Positions 1-39,828 of a stretch of 64,000 bases of DNA are shown here, in pieces. Origin of the DNA: Gammaproteobacteria bacterium (lineage in GTDB: Bacteria; Pseudomonadota; Gammaproteobacteria; QNFE01); assembly GCA_003645455.1 (NCBI GenBank), contig QNFE01000004.1, forward strand, positions 3,406 through 67,405, written 5' to 3'. The notes under the pieces are model-generated. The model saw only the letters and a program-made list of their open reading frames with translations, had not been told where the DNA came from and ran no database searches. The number at the start of each line of letters is the position of its first letter. Positions within the stretch are counted from its first letter, which is position 1. Made by a program: the position numbers and the translations under genes.

Positions 1-341
1 ATAACGATATAATTTTCTTGTTTTTTGTCCTCTTTTTTGAAGATTAAATAATCAATTTTTACCGATATATTTTGCATAAAACTTTGCAAACAACGATTGC
101 AAATCAAAGGCATAGACGATACAATTTTTCCTTTAACAAAAAAATGAGAACCATTATCGTCCTCCAATGCAGAAAAATCTAATCTAACATTTATAACAAA
201 ATCATCATCAATAACAATTTCATCTGACAAATATTCTTTTAATCTGCGACAATGACGCAACAACAAAACCCCTTGCAATGATTCCCCTGCAAGACACATT
301 TTAAAAGGATCAATTTTAACTGGTAGTTTGTTGATAGTCAT
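1..341 (-). CDS. yceD: YceD/DUF177 family protein, N-terminal part (continues beyond window start)
   Basis: Minus-strand ATG at 341..339 gives MTINKLPVKIDPFKMCLAGESLQG...CNRCLQSF with no stop before position 1. The KLP..DP start and the C-x-R-C motif are typical of DUF177/YceD. The start overlaps the hsdR stop (TAATG). Confidence 0.5.
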   Translation of the reverse strand, partial: MTINKLPVKIDPFKMCLAGESLQGVLLLRHCRRLKEYLSDEIVIDDDFVINVRLDFSALEDDNGSHFFVKGKIVSSMPLICNRCLQSFMQNISVKIDYLIFKKEDKKQENYIV

Positions 342-2710
342 TAGCCAGTTTTTTGATACAGATGTTGTTGAAAATCAACAAACAATTGTTTTATCTGGGT
401 GTTGTTTCCAAGTATTTTTGTAGCATCGTCAAGTGATTGATATTTATTTTCTAATAAAATTGGCAATTTATCTTGGTTAAGTTCTTCAAAACCTATCCGG
501 ATATATTTATCTAAGACAAAATCAATAAACTCTTGTTGTTGTGAATTTAAAAATGTTAAAATTTTATTTTTGTTGTTGGCAACTCTTGTGTGGCGACTAA
601 TCGGCTTGGTATCACTGTTAAAAACATACATCAAAACATCAAATAAATCGCTATTTTCGGCATCAATAAGTTTTTTTAAATTATGCAAATCTGGTAGCGA
701 AAAACCTGCATCATCTAATTTATTTAAAAGTGTTTTGCGAGTCATAGGGTTTGCCCATAATTTTTGTAATTCATCCTCATTTTTAAAAAGCTCTGGCAAC
801 TTGCCAAATAAATTATTTAAAAATGTCTGTGTTGATATTGGTTTACCATCACTATTGTAAAATAATGTTGATTGAATATATTTAATCTCTCGCTCTTTGC
901 CATCTTTTAGTTTTATCACAACTTTTTTGGAGCATATGCAAGGCATTTGCTCACACTTGTCGCAAATTACTGGGTCTTTTTCTTCTCCTTCTTCTTCCTC
1001 TTTTGGTTCATCTGGTGTGGGCTTGCTGATTATAATCTCAACAGGTTCTCCGTCCCATTCCGGGTCTGAAAATCTTTGATAGCTATCGACAAAATCATAA
1101 ATAGTAAAAAATTCTTTACCCTCAAAAAGACGCGTGCCACGACCGATAATTTGTTTAAATTCTACCATTTGATTAACAGGACGCATCAACACTATGTTGC
1201 GAATATTACGTGCATCGACTCCTGTGGATAGTTTTTGTGAAGTTGTTAAAATTGTCGGAATCATCTTTTCGTTGTCTTGAAACTCCCTTAAAAATCTCTC
1301 ACCTATTTCGCCATCATTGGCAGTTACTCGCACACAATAATTTAGATCTTTATTATTTTTAATTTGGTTGATGAGGTCACGCACCAAAGCCGCATGCTCT
1401 TGGGTGGCACAAAAAACAAGAGTTTTGTCATTCTCATTTATTTGTTGCATAAAAATTTGCACTCTTTTTTTCTCACGAGCTTTTATTTCAATCTTGCGAT
1501 TAAAATCACGCTCTTCATATAGTTTGTTTTCGGTAATATCTCCTGTAATAATTTCATCATCATCGGTATAAATATAATCATCTAAGGTGGTAGTGATTCT
1601 TTTTATTTTAAATGGGGTTAAAAAACCATCGTTAATACCCTCCTTTAAGGTATAACTATACACAGGCTCGCCAAAATAATTATAAGTATCGATATTTTCA
1701 TCTCTTTTGGGGGTGGCTGTCAGCCCCAATTGCACCGCAGGCGCAAAATAATTTAAAATATCTCGCCAGCTACTCTCATCATTCGCCCCACCACGATGGC
1801 ATTCATCAATAATAATAAGATCAAAAAAATCAGCAGGATATTCGCCAAAGCTTGGTAAAGGTTCGCCGTTTTCATCTGATCCGCTCATAAAAGATTGAAA
1901 GATAGTAAAAAATATACTGCCATTTGTTGGCACTTTGCCTTTTTTTCTTATCTCTTGTGGTTTGATTCTAACTATGGCATCTCTGGCAAATGCTCCAAAC
2001 GCACCCAAAGCTTGGTCGGCAAGAATATTGCGGTCTGCCAAAAATAATATCCTCGGTCTCCTTGATTGATAGTTATTTTTATCATCCATTGCAGAGAGGT
2101 TCCATCTGGCATAAAATAACTTCCAAGCGATTTGAAAAGCGATGGCAGTTTTGCCAGTGCCTGTGGCAAGATTTAATAAGATTCGTTTTTTATTTTGAAT
2201 GATAGCCTCAAGAGTCCTTTTAATCGCAATTTCTTGATAATATCGCAAATGCCAAGTGCCAGATTTATCTTCAAAAGGAACAGCCGCAAATTTTGTCCGC
2301 CAAGTATTTTGTTTTTGATATAATTTGCCCCATAATTGATCTGGGCTGGGATATTTTTTGACTATTTGCTCGGTGCCTGTTTTTAAACAAATTTCATAAA
2401 TCTGTTTGCCATTGGTGGCATAACTATAATCTAAACATAATTTTTTGGCATATAATTTTGCCTGAGCTACGCCCTCTCCCACAGCTAATTCATCTTTTTT
2501 TGCCTCTACAACGGCTAATTTTATGCCACGATATACCAAAATATAATCAGCAATCAGAGCAGTTCCTCGTCTGCCACCGACAGTAATTTTGCCATCGGTG
2601 ATTTTGCAAACATCCCGCTCACGCAAAATTTTTGCCCCATCTACTACACCCCAACCTGCCATTTTCAAGGCAGGATCAATTAACTCCGCTCTGGTTTCTG
2701 ATTCATTCAT
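341..2710 (-). CDS. hsdR: Type I restriction enzyme R subunit (HsdR)
   Basis: The N-terminus MNESETRAELIDPALKMAGW is the classic HsdR start. DEAD/DEAH helicase motifs are present (GTGKT, IIIDECHRG), and it lies downstream of hsdM/hsdS on the same strand. Confidence 0.85.
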   Translation of the reverse strand: MNESETRAELIDPALKMAGWGVVDGAKILRERDVCKITDGKITVGGRRGTALIADYILVYRGIKLAVVEAKKDELAVGEGVAQAKLYAKKLCLDYSYATNGKQIYEICLKTGTEQIVKKYPSPDQLWGKLYQKQNTWRTKFAAVPFEDKSGTWHLRYYQEIAIKRTLEAIIQNKKRILLNLATGTGKTAIAFQIAWKLFYARWNLSAMDDKNNYQSRRPRILFLADRNILADQALGAFGAFARDAIVRIKPQEIRKKGKVPTNGSIFFTIFQSFMSGSDENGEPLPSFGEYPADFFDLIIIDECHRGGANDESSWRDILNYFAPAVQLGLTATPKRDENIDTYNYFGEPVYSYTLKEGINDGFLTPFKIKRITTTLDDYIYTDDDEIITGDITENKLYEERDFNRKIEIKAREKKRVQIFMQQINENDKTLVFCATQEHAALVRDLINQIKNNKDLNYCVRVTANDGEIGERFLREFQDNEKMIPTILTTSQKLSTGVDARNIRNIVLMRPVNQMVEFKQIIGRGTRLFEGKEFFTIYDFVDSYQRFSDPEWDGEPVEIIISKPTPDEPKEEEEGEEKDPVICDKCEQMPCICSKKVVIKLKDGKEREIKYIQSTLFYNSDGKPISTQTFLNNLFGKLPELFKNEDELQKLWANPMTRKTLLNKLDDAGFSLPDLHNLKKLIDAENSDLFDVLMYVFNSDTKPISRHTRVANNKNKILTFLNSQQQEFIDFVLDKYIRIGFEELNQDKLPILLENKYQSLDDATKILGNNTQIKQLFVDFQQHLYQKTG

Positions 2711-2721
2711 TTTTTTATTTT

Positions 2722-2985
2722 CTATTCAGTAAACATTGTATCCTTGTGCCAATTTATAGGATTATTTACAATGTATTCCGCTATTTCATTATATGATTTT
2801 TCATCTCGTATAATATGCTCCCAATAATTTCGTTGCCAAATTCGTTTATCAAACGGAGGCAAAATACCATTTTTAACCATTTTAATATATTCTATCGTAG
2901 TGTATCGTTTAAATGTTTGAACAACCGTGCCAATCGTAGGGGCGGATTCTATATCCGCCCGTTTATGGTGTTCCGCATTCGTCAA
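2722..2985 (-). pseudogene. Truncated REP-associated tyrosine transposase (RAYT / IS200-like Y1) C-terminal half, fused to a REP doublet
   Basis: The C-terminus QRNYWEHIIRDEKSYNEIAEYIVNNPINW matches the conserved RAYT/IS200 C-terminal block, and TIGTVVQTFKRYTT matches the preceding block. The N-terminal catalytic HuH/Tyr half is missing. The first ~17 codons (MTNAEHHKRADIESAPT) are read from the REP palindrome itself. Confidence 0.55.
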
Positions 2986-3036
2986 TTTTTTAAAATCCGT
3001 ATTATCGCGGGCGGATATGGAATCCGCCCCTACATC
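2927..3036. repeat. REP/BIME-like palindromic doublet, copy 1
   Basis: Two hairpin units GTAGGGGCGGATTC(T/C)ATATCCGCCCG (stem GGGCGGAT/ATCCGCCC) lie in inverted orientation around a ~50-nt spacer. Near-identical copies occur at 3888..4023 and 4738..4873. Confidence 0.75.
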
Positions 3037-3109
3037 AAATTGATTGTTTAAATAATTTTTATCTGAAACTATTTTTCTTCCTATCTCTTTTTCTGTGTTC
3101 TCTCGTGCA

Positions 3110-3856
3110 TCACCTGCAACTTTGCCTCCTCATGTTGGCAACATTCTTATTTTCATTAAATGTTTTAGGTTTTTCATTTTGAGATATTTCTGTTGTAACT
3201 CGTTCGCCTAACATTGTAAAAATCAACTCCAAATCATCCATATTGTCACGAAGATTAACACCAGACTTTGCTGGTAAATTTTTAAAATCTTTATATTCAC
3301 TTGGCGTCATACCAAAAGTAGCCTTAGATATTTCGGCAGTTAAAATTGCATAATCCCTATGCTCTTTTACGCCTCGCTCTTGCCATTCATCGGTTAAATT
3401 TTGGCGAATAGCAATCCCTCGCAATCGTTTATCAATCCAATCTTTTGGATAACCCTTTTGCTCATAAATTTCTTTCATTCGCTCTTGGGCAAGTTCTGGG
3501 TTTTCTATCTCGTCCAATCTATCTTGCCCCACCTGTGCTAACCACATTTTAAACGGCTCTGCTTTTTTTGATGGAATTGATTGAATTAAACGAAAAATAT
3601 CTTTTATATTTCCTGCAAGTATTTTTCTATTTTTACCAGATAATGTTTGCATCTCTACCTGGGGACAATTTGTCCCTAAGTAGGTTTTTAACTCTTCATC
3701 TCGTTTTCTTATTTTTTTGAGATAATCAGTAGGATTTTTGCTATCAGATAAAATCGCAACAACATCAACCAAAGAATAATGCCACTCTTCATTATGCCAT
3801 GCTCTGCGAATATTTTTGTCTTGAAAAACAATAAGTTTGTTTTGTTGGTTATCCAT
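3110..3856 (-). CDS. Bro-N domain / DinD-like DNA-damage-inducible protein
   Basis: The N-terminal IRRAWHNEEWHYSLVDVVAIL resembles a Bro-N/KilA-N motif. Its size and its position between hsdS and hsdR are typical of dinD/rhuM-type insertions in Type I R-M loci. Assignment is from recalled family patterns only. Confidence 0.45.
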   Translation of the reverse strand: MDNQQNKLIVFQDKNIRRAWHNEEWHYSLVDVVAILSDSKNPTDYLKKIRKRDEELKTYLGTNCPQVEMQTLSGKNRKILAGNIKDIFRLIQSIPSKKAEPFKMWLAQVGQDRLDEIENPELAQERMKEIYEQKGYPKDWIDKRLRGIAIRQNLTDEWQERGVKEHRDYAILTAEISKATFGMTPSEYKDFKNLPAKSGVNLRDNMDDLELIFTMLGERVTTEISQNEKPKTFNENKNVANMRRQSCR

Positions 3857-3887
3857 TTTTTTATTTTCTATTTGTTAAAAGCATTAT

Positions 3888-4023
3888 ATCATTGTGCCAA
3901 TCGTAGGGGCGGATTCCATATCCGCCCGTTTATGGTGTTCCGCATTCATCAATTTTTTAAAATCCGTATTGTTGCGGGCGGATATGGAATCCGCCCCTAC
4001 ATTTAATTTATCGTCGTTGGATA
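3888..4023. repeat. REP/BIME-like palindromic doublet, copy 2 (extended ~136 bp unit)
   Basis: ATCATTGTGCCAATCGTAGGGGCGGATTCCATATCCGCCCG...CGGGCGGATATGGAATCCGCCCCTACATTTAATTTATCGTCGTTGGAT. It is ~98% identical to copy 3. Confidence 0.8.
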
Positions 4024-4044
4024 ATTTTTGCCCCATTTTTATAG

Positions 4045-4623
4045 TTATAATTCTCCATTAAATGCTTGTTGCAAGATTGATTTTTGTAATTCTACTACAT
4101 TTTTTGTTTTTTGTTGATATATTTTTGTTAATTCTTGAGTTTGCTTTGATAATTTATCTAATTTTTTGACGATTTGTTGTTGTTCGGCAAGTGGCGGGAT
4201 TGGTATTTTTATTTGACCAATTTGATTTTTGTTGATTGAGTTAAATACGGCACCAGTGTTACCAATAATTTCTTTTTGGTGTTTTTTTAAAAAATAAAAA
4301 ATAAAATCTTTATCTACTGATTTTCTGACTCTGATTGAAGCTAAACCTCTGCCTATACATATTGTTTGGGTTGCAAAATTTACAGGTCCGACAGGTGCAC
4401 GAACAGACATCAAAATATCATTTATAATTGCTTTTTTGGTAATTTTTGTAGTCCATTTTGTAGGTTCGCCTATAAAATTTTTGGTAAATTCTTTTTTCCC
4501 TTGATAAAAAGGCATTCCATTTCCATCATTATTGTAGTATTTACTTTCAGGTGATTGTCCTGCAATTATCTCACAAATATCGCCGAGTTTTTTCTCTTGC
4601 CATTCGCCATTTTCAATTTTCAA
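4045..4623 (-). CDS. hsdS: Type I R-M specificity subunit HsdS, half-size (single target-recognition domain)
   Basis: It starts with the HsdS N-terminal motif (GEWQEKKLGDICEI). It has one TRD followed by the conserved HsdS helical block LPIPPLAEQQQIVKKLDKL..LQKSILQQAFNGEL. At 192 aa it is about half of a normal ~400 aa HsdS. The predicted start is TTG. Confidence 0.7.
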   Translation of the reverse strand: MKIENGEWQEKKLGDICEIIAGQSPESKYYNNDGNGMPFYQGKKEFTKNFIGEPTKWTTKITKKAIINDILMSVRAPVGPVNFATQTICIGRGLASIRVRKSVDKDFIFYFLKKHQKEIIGNTGAVFNSINKNQIGQIKIPIPPLAEQQQIVKKLDKLSKQTQELTKIYQQKTKNVVELQKSILQQAFNGEL

Positions 4624-4737
4624 TTTTCAATTCTCCATTGTTTTAAATGTTTTTTTATTTGCCAACCTTTTTTTAGTTGACGATTAGTTTTTGCATTTTC
4701 AATTTTCAACTCCGCCTCCGTTTGTTTTTAATTCGTT

Positions 4738-4873
4738 ATCATTGTGCCAATCGTAGGGGCGGATTCCATATCCGCCCGTTTATGGTGTTCCACATTCATC
4801 AATTTTTTAAAATCCGTATTATTGCGGGCGGATATGGAATCCGCCCCTACATTTAATTTATCGTCGTTGGATT
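4738..4873. repeat. REP/BIME-like palindromic doublet, copy 3
   Basis: Same ~136-bp unit as copy 2, lying between hsdM and hsdS. Confidence 0.8.
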
Positions 4874-4888
4874 ATTTGTTTTTGTTTT

Positions 4889-6346
4889 TCACAATAAACC
4901 TTTAATTTCTTTTAAAATATTTGCACTTTTTTGATCCAATTCTGCCATATTTTTTAATATTTCGGCAGGTTTTCGCAATGGTGTCTCTTGTGGTGCATTG
5001 GGGTTTTTGGCGGACAAATCATAGGTTTTTTGGTCTAATTTTTCAGTATTTATTATCCACGAATTTGGGCTTGTTTTTTTGGTTTTTTGCAATTTTAAAA
5101 ATTCGCTTAAATCATTAGTATTTAATGGATTGGTTTTGCCAAGGTTGCGCTCTAAATTCAACTGATAAAACCAAATATCTGTGGTGGGTTTGCCTTTTTT
5201 GAAAAACAACACGACTGTTTTTACCCCGGCCCCTGTGAATGTGCCAGACGGTAAATCCAAAATTGTATGCAAGTTGCATGAATTTAATAACTCGTGTCGC
5301 AAAGCGATTGAGGCATTATCAGTATTGCTTAAAAATGTATTTTTTATGACAACTCCTGCCTTGCCACCTGCTTTGAGGATTTTTATAAAATGTTGTAAAA
5401 AAAGCGAGGCGGTCTCGCCGGTTTTAATAGGGAAGTTTTGTTGCACCTCGGCTCGCTCTTTGCCGCCAAATGGTGGGTTTGCTAAAATTATATCATAACG
5501 GTCTTTTTGTTGGATATCGTTGATATTCTCTGACAGGGTATTGGTGTGGATAATGTTAGGGGCTGATATGCCGTGCAAAATCATATTCATAATGCCGATA
5601 ATATAAGCTAATGATTTTTTTTCTTTGCCGTAAAAAGTTTTTTGTTGTAATGTTGTGGTGTCACTTGTGGATAACCCACCTGTGGCACTATTTTTTAAAT
5701 AATCAAAAGCTTCAATTAAAAAACCTGCCGAACCTGCCGCTCCATCATAAACTGTGTTGCCTATTTTAGGGCTCACTACGCGGACGATGGTTTTTATCAA
5801 GGCTCGTGGTGTGTAATATTCACCACCATTGCGCCCGGCATTACCCATATTTTTTATTTTGCCCTCATATAGATGGCTCATTTCTAATTGTTCGGCATGG
5901 GTTTTAAAACGCAACTCATTAATAAGATTTATTATCTCTCGTAGGTTATAACCACTTTGAATTCTGTTTTTTAACTCGTTAAAAATTTGCCCTATTTTAT
6001 ATTCAAGGGTATTAGCAGAGCTGGCATTATTTTTGAATTTTTTAAAATATGGGTATAATTTGTTATTAACAAAATCTAATAAATCATCGCCTGTTAAAGA
6101 GTTGTGATCAATTTTACCATTTTTTAATTTGGGGGCAGCCCAGATTTGCCATTGAAACTCTTTTTTAATTATTTGTTGATATTCGGTATCAGACAATTCA
6201 GCAATTTTTATTTTATCTTGCTCCAAATCATCTAAGTATTTTAAAAACAAAACCCACGAGGTCTGCTCGATATAATCTAACTCGCTACTGCATCCTGCAT
6301 CTTTGTGCAAAATATCGTCAATATTTTTAAAAGTTTGGGTAAACAT
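4889..6346 (-). CDS. hsdM: Type I R-M N6-adenine DNA methyltransferase subunit HsdM
   Basis: Carries the N6-adenine MTase catalytic motif NPPFGG (gamma-class layout, as in HsdM). Size and operon context with hsdS/hsdR fit. Confidence 0.9.
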   Translation of the reverse strand: MFTQTFKNIDDILHKDAGCSSELDYIEQTSWVLFLKYLDDLEQDKIKIAELSDTEYQQIIKKEFQWQIWAAPKLKNGKIDHNSLTGDDLLDFVNNKLYPYFKKFKNNASSANTLEYKIGQIFNELKNRIQSGYNLREIINLINELRFKTHAEQLEMSHLYEGKIKNMGNAGRNGGEYYTPRALIKTIVRVVSPKIGNTVYDGAAGSAGFLIEAFDYLKNSATGGLSTSDTTTLQQKTFYGKEKKSLAYIIGIMNMILHGISAPNIIHTNTLSENINDIQQKDRYDIILANPPFGGKERAEVQQNFPIKTGETASLFLQHFIKILKAGGKAGVVIKNTFLSNTDNASIALRHELLNSCNLHTILDLPSGTFTGAGVKTVVLFFKKGKPTTDIWFYQLNLERNLGKTNPLNTNDLSEFLKLQKTKKTSPNSWIINTEKLDQKTYDLSAKNPNAPQETPLRKPAEILKNMAELDQKSANILKEIKGLL

Positions 6347-6368
6347 TTTTTATCCTATTGTTTGTATG

Positions 6369-6394
6369 CGGTCTGATATGGAATCAGCCCCTAC
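6369..6394. repeat. Half-unit of the REP-like element (degenerate)
   Basis: GGTCTGATATGGAATCAGCCCCTACA resembles the right arm of the REP unit. It lies between the hsdM start and the dnaE stop. Confidence 0.5.
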
Positions 6395-19513: not shown

Positions 19514-19562
19514 GTAAGGTCTGATTGACTGCCAAAAAACAACAAATGCAGTTATTATTATA

Positions 19563-19584
19563 ACAAGGGGACATGTCCCCTTGT
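19563..19584 (+). terminator. Perfect 22-nt palindrome ACAAGGGGACATGTCCCCTTGT downstream of dsrC (putative attenuator/partial terminator)
   Basis: GC-rich perfect hairpin 50 nt after the dsrC stop, followed 40 nt later by a second weaker hairpin with a T-run (19620..19650). Confidence 0.35.
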
Positions 19585-19680
19585 TAGCAGTTATTCAGAA
19601 CTTACCTTAGCAATATTATTACTCGCTCTTTTTTTTTAAAGAGTGAGCGATTATAATATAAAAATTAAGGCAACAATCAT

Positions 19681-39666: not shown

Positions 39667-39731
39667 TGATTTATTATCCGTCTGCTCCTATGAAATAAAT
39701 ACTCCTGCCTACGGTCATGATGCCAAAAAGT

Positions 39732-39828
39732 CCGTCACTGCGAACGAGCCGCGGCGAAGTGTGGCAGTCTCTTGTTGTTATTCGTATACCACGATGAGAT
39801 CGCTCCTCGCGATGACGTATTCTTTTTA
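39732..39828. repeat. MITE-like element, family 2, copy B (shorter, ~97 bp)
   Basis: CCGTCACTGCGAACGAG...GTGGCAGTCTCT...CTCCTCGCGATGACGTATTCTTTTTA has the same termini and core as 11953..12067, with a ~22-nt internal deletion. It lies where ruvB would normally follow ruvA. Confidence 0.6.

Follow-up and report, generated by a model that had tools for sequence, protein, structure and literature searches.

RAYTs are HuH/Y1 transposases that bind and cleave GTAG-footed REP hairpins as single-stranded DNA, and inverted pairs of REPs (REPINs) are the unit that these enzymes are thought to copy. In one branch of the family, TnpAREP subclass 2.4, the RAYT gene contains REPs that form part of its coding sequence and fall in the loop connecting the HuH strand to helix alpha-C, and this in-gene REP is a unique feature of the subclass (Quentin et al. 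2018, PMC6006769), which corresponds to RAYT Group 4 (Bertels et al. 2017, PMC5581495). None of the sources consulted describes a biochemical test of a subclass 2.4 enzyme.

Here we analyze a window of 64,000 nucleotides (64 kb; the whole stretch of DNA under study) from an uncultured gammaproteobacterium, in which a type I restriction-modification (R-M) operon carries REP hairpins together with part of a RAYT gene. We consider this locus very probably a decayed REPtron of the TnpAREP subclass 2.4 / RAYT Group 4 type, an assignment made from homologues and gene architecture and not from those authors' own profiles. The RAYT fragment and its REPs qualify as a REPtron only as a remnant, and the locus is a clear but ordinary case of a known kind of element.

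REP doublets in a type I R-M operon

On the minus strand, the operon reads hsdM, unit 3, hsdS, unit 2, a Bro-N/DinD-like gene, unit 1 with an 87-aa open reading frame (ORF), and hsdR. Judged by its genes, with hsdR, hsdM and hsdS all present, it is a predicted type I R-M system. Its features are as follows.

341-2710, minus strand: hsdR, intact, starting 11 nt after the stop of the RAYT fragment
2722-3036, minus strand: 3' part of a RAYT/TnpAREP gene of subclass-2.4 type, consisting of the in-gene doublet and the C-terminal core (WQRNYWEHIIRDE...AEYIVNNP)
2936-3033: core of REP doublet 1 (REPIN-like), with arms at 2936-2961 (plus strand) and 3008-3033 (minus strand); wider unit 2920-3060
3037-3856 (ORF 3110-3856), minus strand: Bro-N/DinD-like guest gene, a probable pseudogene
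3903-4000: core of REP doublet 2, in the gap between hsdS and the dinD-like gene; unit 3887-4027
4045-4623, minus strand: half-size hsdS with one target-recognition domain (TRD) and one conserved region (CR)
4650-4700, minus strand: putative out-of-frame remnant of the hsdS N-terminus (ENAKTNRQLKKGWQIKK), between unit 3 and the present hsdS start
4753-4850: core of REP doublet 3, in the gap between hsdM and hsdS; unit 4737-4877, 98% identical to unit 2
4889-6346, minus strand: hsdM, intact
6369-6394, minus strand: solo diverged REP, between the dnaE stop and the hsdM start

A repeat search of the window returned a single repeat family made up of the three 141-nt units. An earlier sequence-only reading of this DNA had described three doublets and a half unit, and its positions agree with ours to within a few bases; its estimate of about 98% identity between copies 2 and 3 was likewise accurate (138 of 141 positions). 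The 98-nt cores of the three units are identical at 94-96 of 98 positions, whichever pair is compared. Each core consists of two 26-nt arms (GTAGGGGCGGATTCCATATCCGCCCG) placed in inverted orientation around a 46-nt spacer, and the arms are 96-100% complementary, in keeping with the two inverted hairpins that had been proposed for each doublet. Unit 2 folds into one long hairpin both as DNA (-37.3 kcal/mol, z = -8.1) and as RNA (-60.5 kcal/mol, z = -8.6), and two inverted REPs folding as a single hairpin is the structure of a REPIN. The likeness to the BIMEs of E. coli, which are mosaics of y and z REP types with defined linkers and IHF/gyrase sites, lies in this generic doublet layout only.

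The single arms have the characters of a REP, namely a short repeated hairpin with a conserved 5' GT[AG]G foot whose stem pairing is kept, and each REP at the locus has a 5' GTAG foot. Among 65 distinct variants, stem pair 8-22 changed from CG to AT seven times and pair 10-20 from GC to CG eight times. The solo REP at 6369-6394 differs by three mismatches, with one stem pair compensated (G-C to T-A) and one broken. Allowing up to three mismatches, we found seven REP units in the window, all within 2936-6394 and all inside the R-M locus, where 100 shuffles gave an expectation of zero; the remaining ~57 kb contained none. A generic scan of the whole 64 kb for GTAG with a perfect hairpin gave no further instance, and an Rfam scan of the window returned only a tRNA. 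The REP is thus limited to 3.5 kb of the window, unlike a classic genome-wide REPIN population. This confinement could reflect local duplication, or the REPs could have come with the locus. The plus-strand ORFs at 2815-3051 and 3779-4006, already taken to be translations of the palindromes, do contain those translations (RRGGF.IRPF...GGYGIRPY), overlap minus-strand features and are spurious.

The hsdS ORF corresponds to TRD2+CR2 of a two-TRD HsdS (62% identical to residues 204-389 of the L200 protein), and the putative N-terminal remnant upstream of it, a weak match (53% over 17 aa, E = 0.04 in a small database), would mark an internal deletion of TRD1+CR1. We rejected the idea that REPs cut hsdS in half, since the remnant lies between unit 3 and the start codon and the ORF is TRD2+CR2. 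The Bro-N/DinD-like gene is probably a pseudogene. Its ORF has a +1 frameshift ~30 codons before the end, and the true tail (GGKVAGDARENTEKEIGRKIVSDKNYL) lies in the other frame and runs open into unit 1; as this unit replaces the ~8 last codons seen in relatives, the gene is clipped, and doublet 1 abuts its clipped 3' end. Hence the earlier statement that REPs "dissect" the locus fits the dinD-like gene but not the half hsdS, which would derive from the internal deletion and not from a REP edge, and the word is better taken as descriptive than as causal. A 16-nt leader with its ATG (19 nt in total) is duplicated, standing once before the dinD-like gene and once before hsdR.

Comparison with 80 related R-M loci revealed no such REPs in any of them. 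These loci are tightly packed: only 1-4 nt separate the dinD-like stop codon from the start of hsdR (ATG) in two (L159 and L174), and hsdM and hsdS are ~12 nt apart in four (L163, L186, L219 and L229). Because the related loci lack the units and their gaps are a few bases or absent, we conclude that the REP units are insertions.

Related operons also host RAYT genes of different lineages, as in L157 (hsdM, RAYT, RhuM, hsdS, dinD, hsdR) and L185 (hsdM, ORF, RAYT, hsdS); a RAYT lies just downstream in L156, and L150/L151 and L152 hold remnants. The variable modules of the window, the hsdS half-gene and the accessory DinD-like gene, are exactly those that the near-identical doublets enclose.

The RAYT fragment and its in-gene REPs

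The called ORF of the RAYT fragment (2722-2985, minus strand, 87 aa, TTG start) had been read as the C-terminal part of a RAYT, and homology searches bear this out. It matches NCBIfam REP_Tyr_transpos (NF047646) with E = 9e-12 at profile positions 72-132 of 146 and full-length PF01797 proteins with E values down to 3e-31, while the Pfam Y1_Tnp profile by itself gives a sub-threshold match (E = 0.03). The curated whole-protein thresholds are missed (45 bits versus 80 for NCBIfam; 14.8 versus 23 for Pfam), as expected for half a protein, and we class the sequence as a gene fragment and not as a member protein.

On helix alpha-D the fragment still has its catalytic Tyr, and the conserved W and the Y..NP block are likewise present; in an alignment with E. 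coli TnpAREP (4ER8), Y71 corresponds to Y115 and the catalytic Asn, N75, to N119. The HuH motif, located at 59-61 in 4ER8, is absent from the 87-aa ORF and its extended frame, and the N-terminal half of a RAYT was not found anywhere in the 64-kb window. The sequence-only reading had the catalytic N-terminal half missing, which is correct for HuH, but the nucleophile Tyr is kept. With the HuH half gone there is no metal site, and the local RAYT is dead. Two other identities were considered and rejected. The stretch NQFD just upstream of doublet 1 resembles a decayed HuH (NHFH), but relatives show that it belongs to the frameshifted DinD-like C-terminal tail. An IS200/IS605 element was dismissed given the weak match to NF033573 (E = 0.017), the absence of left- and right-end hairpins, and the single gene copy.

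A REPtron is a RAYT gene with its REPs on both flanks; here REPs lie 5' of the RAYT fragment and inside it, and none lies 3'. On the minus strand, doublet 1 encodes VGADSISAR-DNTDFKKLTNAEHHK-RADIESAPT, which is the in-gene RAYT linker directly upstream of alpha-C. In full-length homologues, the in-frame stretch that separates NH[FI]H from the C-terminal block contains VGADSISAR...RADxESAPT, and the two peptides are direct translations of the REP and its reverse complement; the REP is thus in frame between HuH and Tyr, the arrangement of subclass 2.4. The DNA of L097 confirms the in-gene REP, and L109 holds a homologue without the insertion. Since homologues have the same in-frame REP peptides, the break in the RAYT gene lies immediately 5' of the doublet that the gene itself carries. 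The earlier picture of a REP flanking, or fused to, a RAYT remnant gives way to a doublet that is part of the gene. Other loci are broken at the same place. For instance, L153/L154 likewise retain the doublet and the C-half only, L150, L152 and L155 have RAYT deletions or frameshifts at the in-gene REP, and L032 has a RAYT N-half that stops at the REP.

The sequence-only reading had named two tests, a significant transposase match for the 87-aa ORF and further occurrences of the REP, and it passed both. In species-representative genomes, the same 25-mer was found in at least 120 stretches, which belong to several phyla; 28 viral contigs also carry it, among them the phage contig IMGVR_UViG_3300010330_000057 from the same sample, and no RAYT gene was found at any of these 28 viral loci. 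Solo REPs in the phage contig have an A/T-rich 5' flank similar to that of the units (92% over 50 nt). Outside the window the arms occur singly, in phage and other genomes, or in same-orientation tandem arrays (L118, L090). The arrays in L118 alternate two REP types, and a CRISPR-like reading of them was rejected on account of this alternation and of the constant "spacer". The 22-mer ATCCGCCCGTTTATGGTGTTCC, comprising one REP stem and the adjoining spacer, had no match in a metagenome collection that evidently lacks the source sample, and a full-text literature search returned no paper with the REP sequence or the peptide VGADSISAR. An identical REP of 25-26 nt spans genomes of 30-67% G+C.

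Origin of the doublets

We propose that a full RAYT once stood between the dinD-like gene and hsdR and seeded REP copies nearby. The 5' half of this gene would then have disappeared, and the simplest route is a deletion whose endpoint was the doublet inside the gene. Two more doublet copies would have inserted in the hsdM-hsdS and hsdS-dinD-like gaps, with the solo REP upstream of hsdM, and without an intact RAYT at some other place in the genome the remaining units would be fossils. We infer this order of events, as no closely related intact sister locus was found and the nearest full-length RAYT is 65% identical.

Past the REP feet, the flanks that units 2 and 3 have in common with unit 1 extend for ~30 nt and 9-17 nt, which simple REPIN transposition does not predict. 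It is possible, though we favor it less, that the three 141-nt units did not arise by independent REPIN transpositions and that segmental duplication or gene conversion instead copied a single junction segment (dinD-like tail, in-gene doublet, first RAYT alpha-C codons) locally. Every copy in the window lies within 3.5 kb; past the REP foot, units 2 and 3 share with unit 1 the sequence ATTGGCAC ("IGT"), which aligns with native residues of homologues; an A/T-rich flank of ~30 nt on the other side is common to the units; and the 19-nt duplication before the dinD-like gene and hsdR shows the same tendency. However, we found no support for the dinD-like 3' end as the source of the left flank in units 2 and 3: alignments of this flank to dinD-like tails are not significant (p = 0.06-0.86) and score no higher than shuffles. 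The similar flank of the phage solo REPs suggests that this stretch may belong to the mobile unit, and E. coli TnpAREP cuts at CT sites distant from the hairpin and would carry flanks along.

A role as native regulatory elements of the operon (terminators, attenuators or mRNA stabilizers) and not as mobile DNA would account for units placed exactly in intergenic gaps, for a fold of -60 kcal/mol on the mRNA strand, and for other small palindromes in the same gaps of some relatives. We find it improbable, given that 0 of 80 related loci carry the units, that the coding (minus) strand has no T-run after the stem, the terminator-like matches being antisense, and that the REP is common to unrelated genomes and phages; the units could still have acquired a secondary regulatory effect after insertion. 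Even less credible is a MITE that ends in 26-nt terminal inverted repeats and is mobilized by a DDE transposase, for which the RAYT fragment would be an unrelated neighbor. A 98-nt element with perfect inverted ends does resemble a MITE, but each arm is itself a 5' GTAG-footed hairpin, the arms also occur singly (6369-6394, phage, other genomes) and in same-orientation arrays, RAYT genes contain this very sequence in frame, and neither definition of the boundaries yields a target-site duplication.

A different question is whether subclass 2.4 RAYTs have a recurring and perhaps functional association with this type I R-M family instead of being random junk within it. The doublets could then mark the limits of cassettes, with specificity or accessory modules exchanged through a single-strand transposase or through recombination. 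We regard this as a long shot. A literature search that paired RAYTs with restriction-modification found no title or abstract on a link between the two.

Comparison with known REP-RAYT systems

With the decayed REPtron as our preferred reading, the locus can be set beside four described systems. As in E. coli TnpAREP and its REP-BIME elements (4ER8; Messing et al. 2012, PMC3479197), the substrate is a GTAG-footed hairpin and the protein has the WQ...H.IR...Y.x.NP block with catalytic Tyr and Asn; the E. coli enzyme differs in belonging to subclass 2.2, its C-terminal tail is inhibitory, its REPs are bulged, and its gene contains no REP. The REPINs of Pseudomonas fluorescens (Bertels and Rainey 2011, PMC3116915) likewise comprise two inverted REPs with a short spacer that form one long hairpin, occur as near-identical copies and are associated with a RAYT. 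However, classic REPINs number in the hundreds and are inherited vertically with a single-copy RAYT, whereas here the copies cluster in a single locus, the associated RAYT is dead, and an identical REP is found across phyla and phages. REP insertions in coding genes (Di Nocera et al. 2013, PMC3733652) are also singles or dimers read in frame, adding 20-30 residues in tolerant loops, but here the host gene is the transposase itself.

The closest match is subclass 2.4 / Group 4 (PMC6006769, PMC5581495), with which the locus shares the 5' GTAG foot, three G-C pairs at the stem base, the in-frame REP between HuH and Tyr, the lack of a C-terminal extension past the core, and a patchy distribution across phyla. 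It departs from that group in having the 3' part of the gene only, without HuH, and in its host, as Gammaproteobacteria are uncommon hosts.

The locus leaves the general picture of REPs and RAYTs unchanged. It adds a gammaproteobacterial case, situated within a defence locus, to a subclass described chiefly in Cyanobacteria and Bacteroidetes, and it offers a natural example that a RAYT carrying its own target hairpins can decay at those hairpins and that REP doublets can wedge into an operon with genes that otherwise overlap or lie only a few bases from one another. The cross-phylum REP, its presence in a phage of the same sample, and RAYTs recurring in one type I R-M family bear on whether the REPIN-RAYT systems of this subclass spread horizontally, in contrast to those of Groups 2 and 3, which are vertically inherited.

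REP doublets in the type I R-M locus

The type I R-M locus lies within the first 6.4 kb of the window, which derives from a gammaproteobacterial MAG (JGI sample 3300010330; locus proteins RLA08644-RLA08647), and is adjoined by dnaE and rnhB. Its features are as follows.

341-2710, minus strand, hsdR
2722-2985, minus strand, 87-aa ORF
2920-3060, REP unit 1, 141 nt
3110-3856, minus strand, Bro-N/DinD-like gene
3887-4027, REP unit 2, 141 nt
4045-4623, minus strand, half-size hsdS
4737-4877, REP unit 3, 141 nt
4889-6346, minus strand, hsdM

The three units were recovered by a repeat search of the window as a single family, each with a core of two inverted 26-nt arms (GTAGGGGCGGATTCCATATCCGCCCG) separated by a 46-nt spacer. 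At up to three mismatches this 26-mer is found seven times in the window, all within 2936-6394, versus none expected by chance, and a generic scan for perfect-stem hairpins with GTAG found no further one in the remaining ~57 kb. The unit folds into a single long hairpin as DNA or RNA (z about -8). The repeat search, the copy number and the folding confirm that the palindromic REP doublets proposed for this locus by the sequence-only reading are real. Pairwise identity among the 98-nt cores is 96-98% throughout, and units 2 and 3 are near-identical as had been claimed, with 3 differences in 141 positions.

At the far end of the locus, the hsdR stop and the ATG of the following minus-strand ORF overlap (TAATG at 331-343), and this ORF continues beyond the window's left end; there is no REP on this side. 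The hsdR and DinD-like starts are preceded by the same 16 nt (TAGAAAATAAAAAAA and the base next to it; 2708-2726 and 3854-3872, minus strand), giving 19 identical nucleotides once the ATG is counted. They lie inside a 42-nt repeat (76% identical) that may be a duplicated leader.

A RAYT fragment and its in-gene doublet

The 87-aa ORF that overlaps doublet 1, the core of unit 1, is the C-terminal part of a RAYT. Pfam Y1_Tnp by itself is sub-threshold (E = 0.03), and NCBIfam REP_Tyr_transpos matches at E = 9e-12 over profile positions 72-132 of 146. Among 5.8 billion proteins the ORF has 281 matches with 45-65% identity to the query, most of them 160-190 aa long with a recorded PF01797; JGI annotates several as 'REP element-mobilizing transposase RayT'. 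The assignment to Y1/RAYT transposases thus holds. A profile built from these homologues matches E. coli TnpAREP (4ER8), aligning Y71 of the ORF with Y115, the catalytic tyrosine, and N75 with N119, the metal ligand; the HuH motif (H59-M60-H61) falls in the missing half. The catalytic half had been described as absent, which is correct for the HuH portion but not for the catalytic tyrosine and asparagine. A search of the whole window for a RAYT N-terminal half yields nothing, even at E = 50, and without the metal-binding half any enzyme made from this fragment must be inactive.

Doublet 1 had been read as a flanking REP fused to a transposase remnant, a reading the homologues rule out. Minus-strand translation of the REP gives VGADSISAR, that of its reverse complement gives RAD(M/I)ESAPT, and an alignment of full-length homologues shows both peptides as in-frame segments separating the HuH strand from the C-terminal block, in the order NH[FI]H-x-II-EI, VGADSISAR, a variable stretch, RADxESAPT and IGxIVQ[ST]FKR. 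At the DNA level, the full-length RAYT gene of comparison locus L097 carries the REP within its ORF, and in L109, whose homologue lacks the insertion, a short loop takes that position and the REPs lie outside the gene. Therefore, doublet 1 belongs to the RAYT gene itself as its in-gene doublet, and the break in the gene falls immediately upstream of it. This architecture is already known: in-gene REPs are a unique feature of TnpAREP subclass 2.4 (Quentin et al. 2018, PMC6006769), the counterpart of RAYT Group 4 in Bertels et al. 2017 (PMC5581495).

The HuH/Y1 enzyme TnpAREP binds and cleaves GTAG-footed hairpins in single-stranded DNA (PMC3479197), and inverted REP pairs, or REPINs, are the replicating unit (PMC3116915). 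We propose that a full subclass-2.4 RAYT would once have stood between the DinD-like gene and hsdR, that its doublets would have been copied into the adjoining gaps, and that its 5' half would then have been lost in a deletion that stopped at the in-gene doublet. That in-gene REPs act as break points is supported by RAYT genes in other organisms: doublet and C-half alone remain in L153/L154 (L153 2934-3237), deletions or frameshifts occur at the in-gene REP in L150, L152 and L155 (1-397), and an N-half ends at a REP in L032 (3190-3447). In such genes the REP loop (GATATGGAA) also provides an in-frame ATG that gene callers take as a start. Units 2 and 3 could instead have arisen by local duplication of the junction segment, as they have short flanks beyond the REP feet in common with unit 1; however, these flanks show no significant similarity to DinD-like tails, and we regard this history as rather unlikely. 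The window element is very probably a decayed REPtron of the described subclass, and the sequence-only reading was right in substance.

Related R-M loci and lesions in the window

A scan for HsdM relatives yielded 80 loci (72-79% identity), usually ordered hsdM, two-TRD hsdS, optional guest genes and hsdR, with a DinD-like homologue (44-88% identical) in 8 of the 80. The window's REP occurs in none of them, even at up to five mismatches. Their junctions are tight: 1-4 nt separate the DinD-like stop from the hsdR start in L159 and L174, and in several relatives the HsdS tblastn match starts about 12 nt past the end of the HsdM match. The three units are therefore insertions into junctions that are normally nearly empty.

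Two genes of the locus carry lesions. Comparison with homologues in L159, L174, L170 and L157 reveals a +1 frameshift in the DinD-like gene, some 30 codons short of its end (3037-3135, minus strand); the true tail GGKVAGDARENTEKEIGRKIVSDKNYL lies in another frame and runs directly into doublet 1, and unit 1 takes the place of roughly eight terminal codons that the relatives have. NCBI lists no protein for this gene, and the frameshift is either a pseudogene lesion or an assembly error. The hsdS ORF corresponds to the TRD2 and CR2 portion of a complete HsdS, sharing 62% identity with residues 204-389 of L200. Between unit 3 and the present start lies a short remnant of the original hsdS N-terminus, out of frame, so TRD1 was lost within the gene and not at a REP edge. 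Together with TTGAAAA heptamers (three at the hsdS start and two about 75 nt upstream; 4607-4715, minus strand), this remnant marks an internal deletion of one TRD.

RAYTs that belong to other lineages and carry in-gene 'double-foot' REPs of their own lie inside related operons in L157 (hsdM, RAYT, RhuM, hsdS, dinD, hsdR; RAYT 2410-2988) and L185 (hsdM, ORF, RAYT, hsdS; RAYT 3479-4045) and directly downstream of one in L156 (10772-11143). RAYT remnants sit beside fragments of homologous hsdM or hsdR in L150/L151 (L150 2950-3306) and L152 (2880-3270). RhuM, Bro-N or DinD-like guest genes accompany these RAYTs and remnants. The association of RAYTs with homologous type I R-M loci is possibly recurrent, and may merely reflect the gathering of mobile DNA by defence loci.

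The REP in phages and other genomes

Twenty-eight IMG/VR contigs contain the REP, and none of these viral loci encodes a RAYT. One, L127 (G+C 38%), comes from the window's own sample and is a phage fragment whose ORFs, judged by eye, resemble capsid, portal, tail-fibre, baseplate and endolysin genes. Four REPs lie between its genes, among them a doublet that matches the window's at about 80% identity over 104 nt. A perfect 24-nt palindrome unrelated to the REP, AACAAGGGGACATGTCCCCTTGTT, occurs once in the window (19562-19585) and at many sites, 10-12 per ~10 kb, in REP-bearing phage contigs L127, L139 and L143. Shared by phage and window, this palindrome suggests a common host lineage and may point to a phage-host link. 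At 39725-39773 of the window, a G+C-rich stretch with A+T-rich surroundings matches phage locus L139 (2885-2931) at 84% identity over 49 nt.

In species-representative genomes the exact 25-mer REP is present in at least 120 stretches. The matches listed (L002-L121) span several phyla and local G+C of 30% to 67%; they are mostly Oscillospiraceae and other Clostridia, and include Desulfobacteraceae, Coriobacteriaceae, Bulleidia and Bacteroides. Several of these genomes carry the REP on more than one contig. Since a RAYT lies within the stretch (at most 8 kb examined) in only 7 of the 120 listed, most copies are dispersed REPs. In a set of 65 distinct variants, substitutions in the upper stem pairs affect both partners, showing selection on the REP hairpin. 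Tandem BIME-like arrays are also seen: eight repeats of a 69-70-nt unit in L118 (4493-5004), alternating the window's REP with a second REP type in opposite orientation (GTAGGGGAGCATTTCATATGCTCCCG), and four REPs at 41-nt spacing in L090 (320-467). While enterobacterial and pseudomonad REPs are species-specific, the identical 25-26-nt REP described here has a far broader range, and this breadth suggests horizontal spread of this REP/RAYT family.
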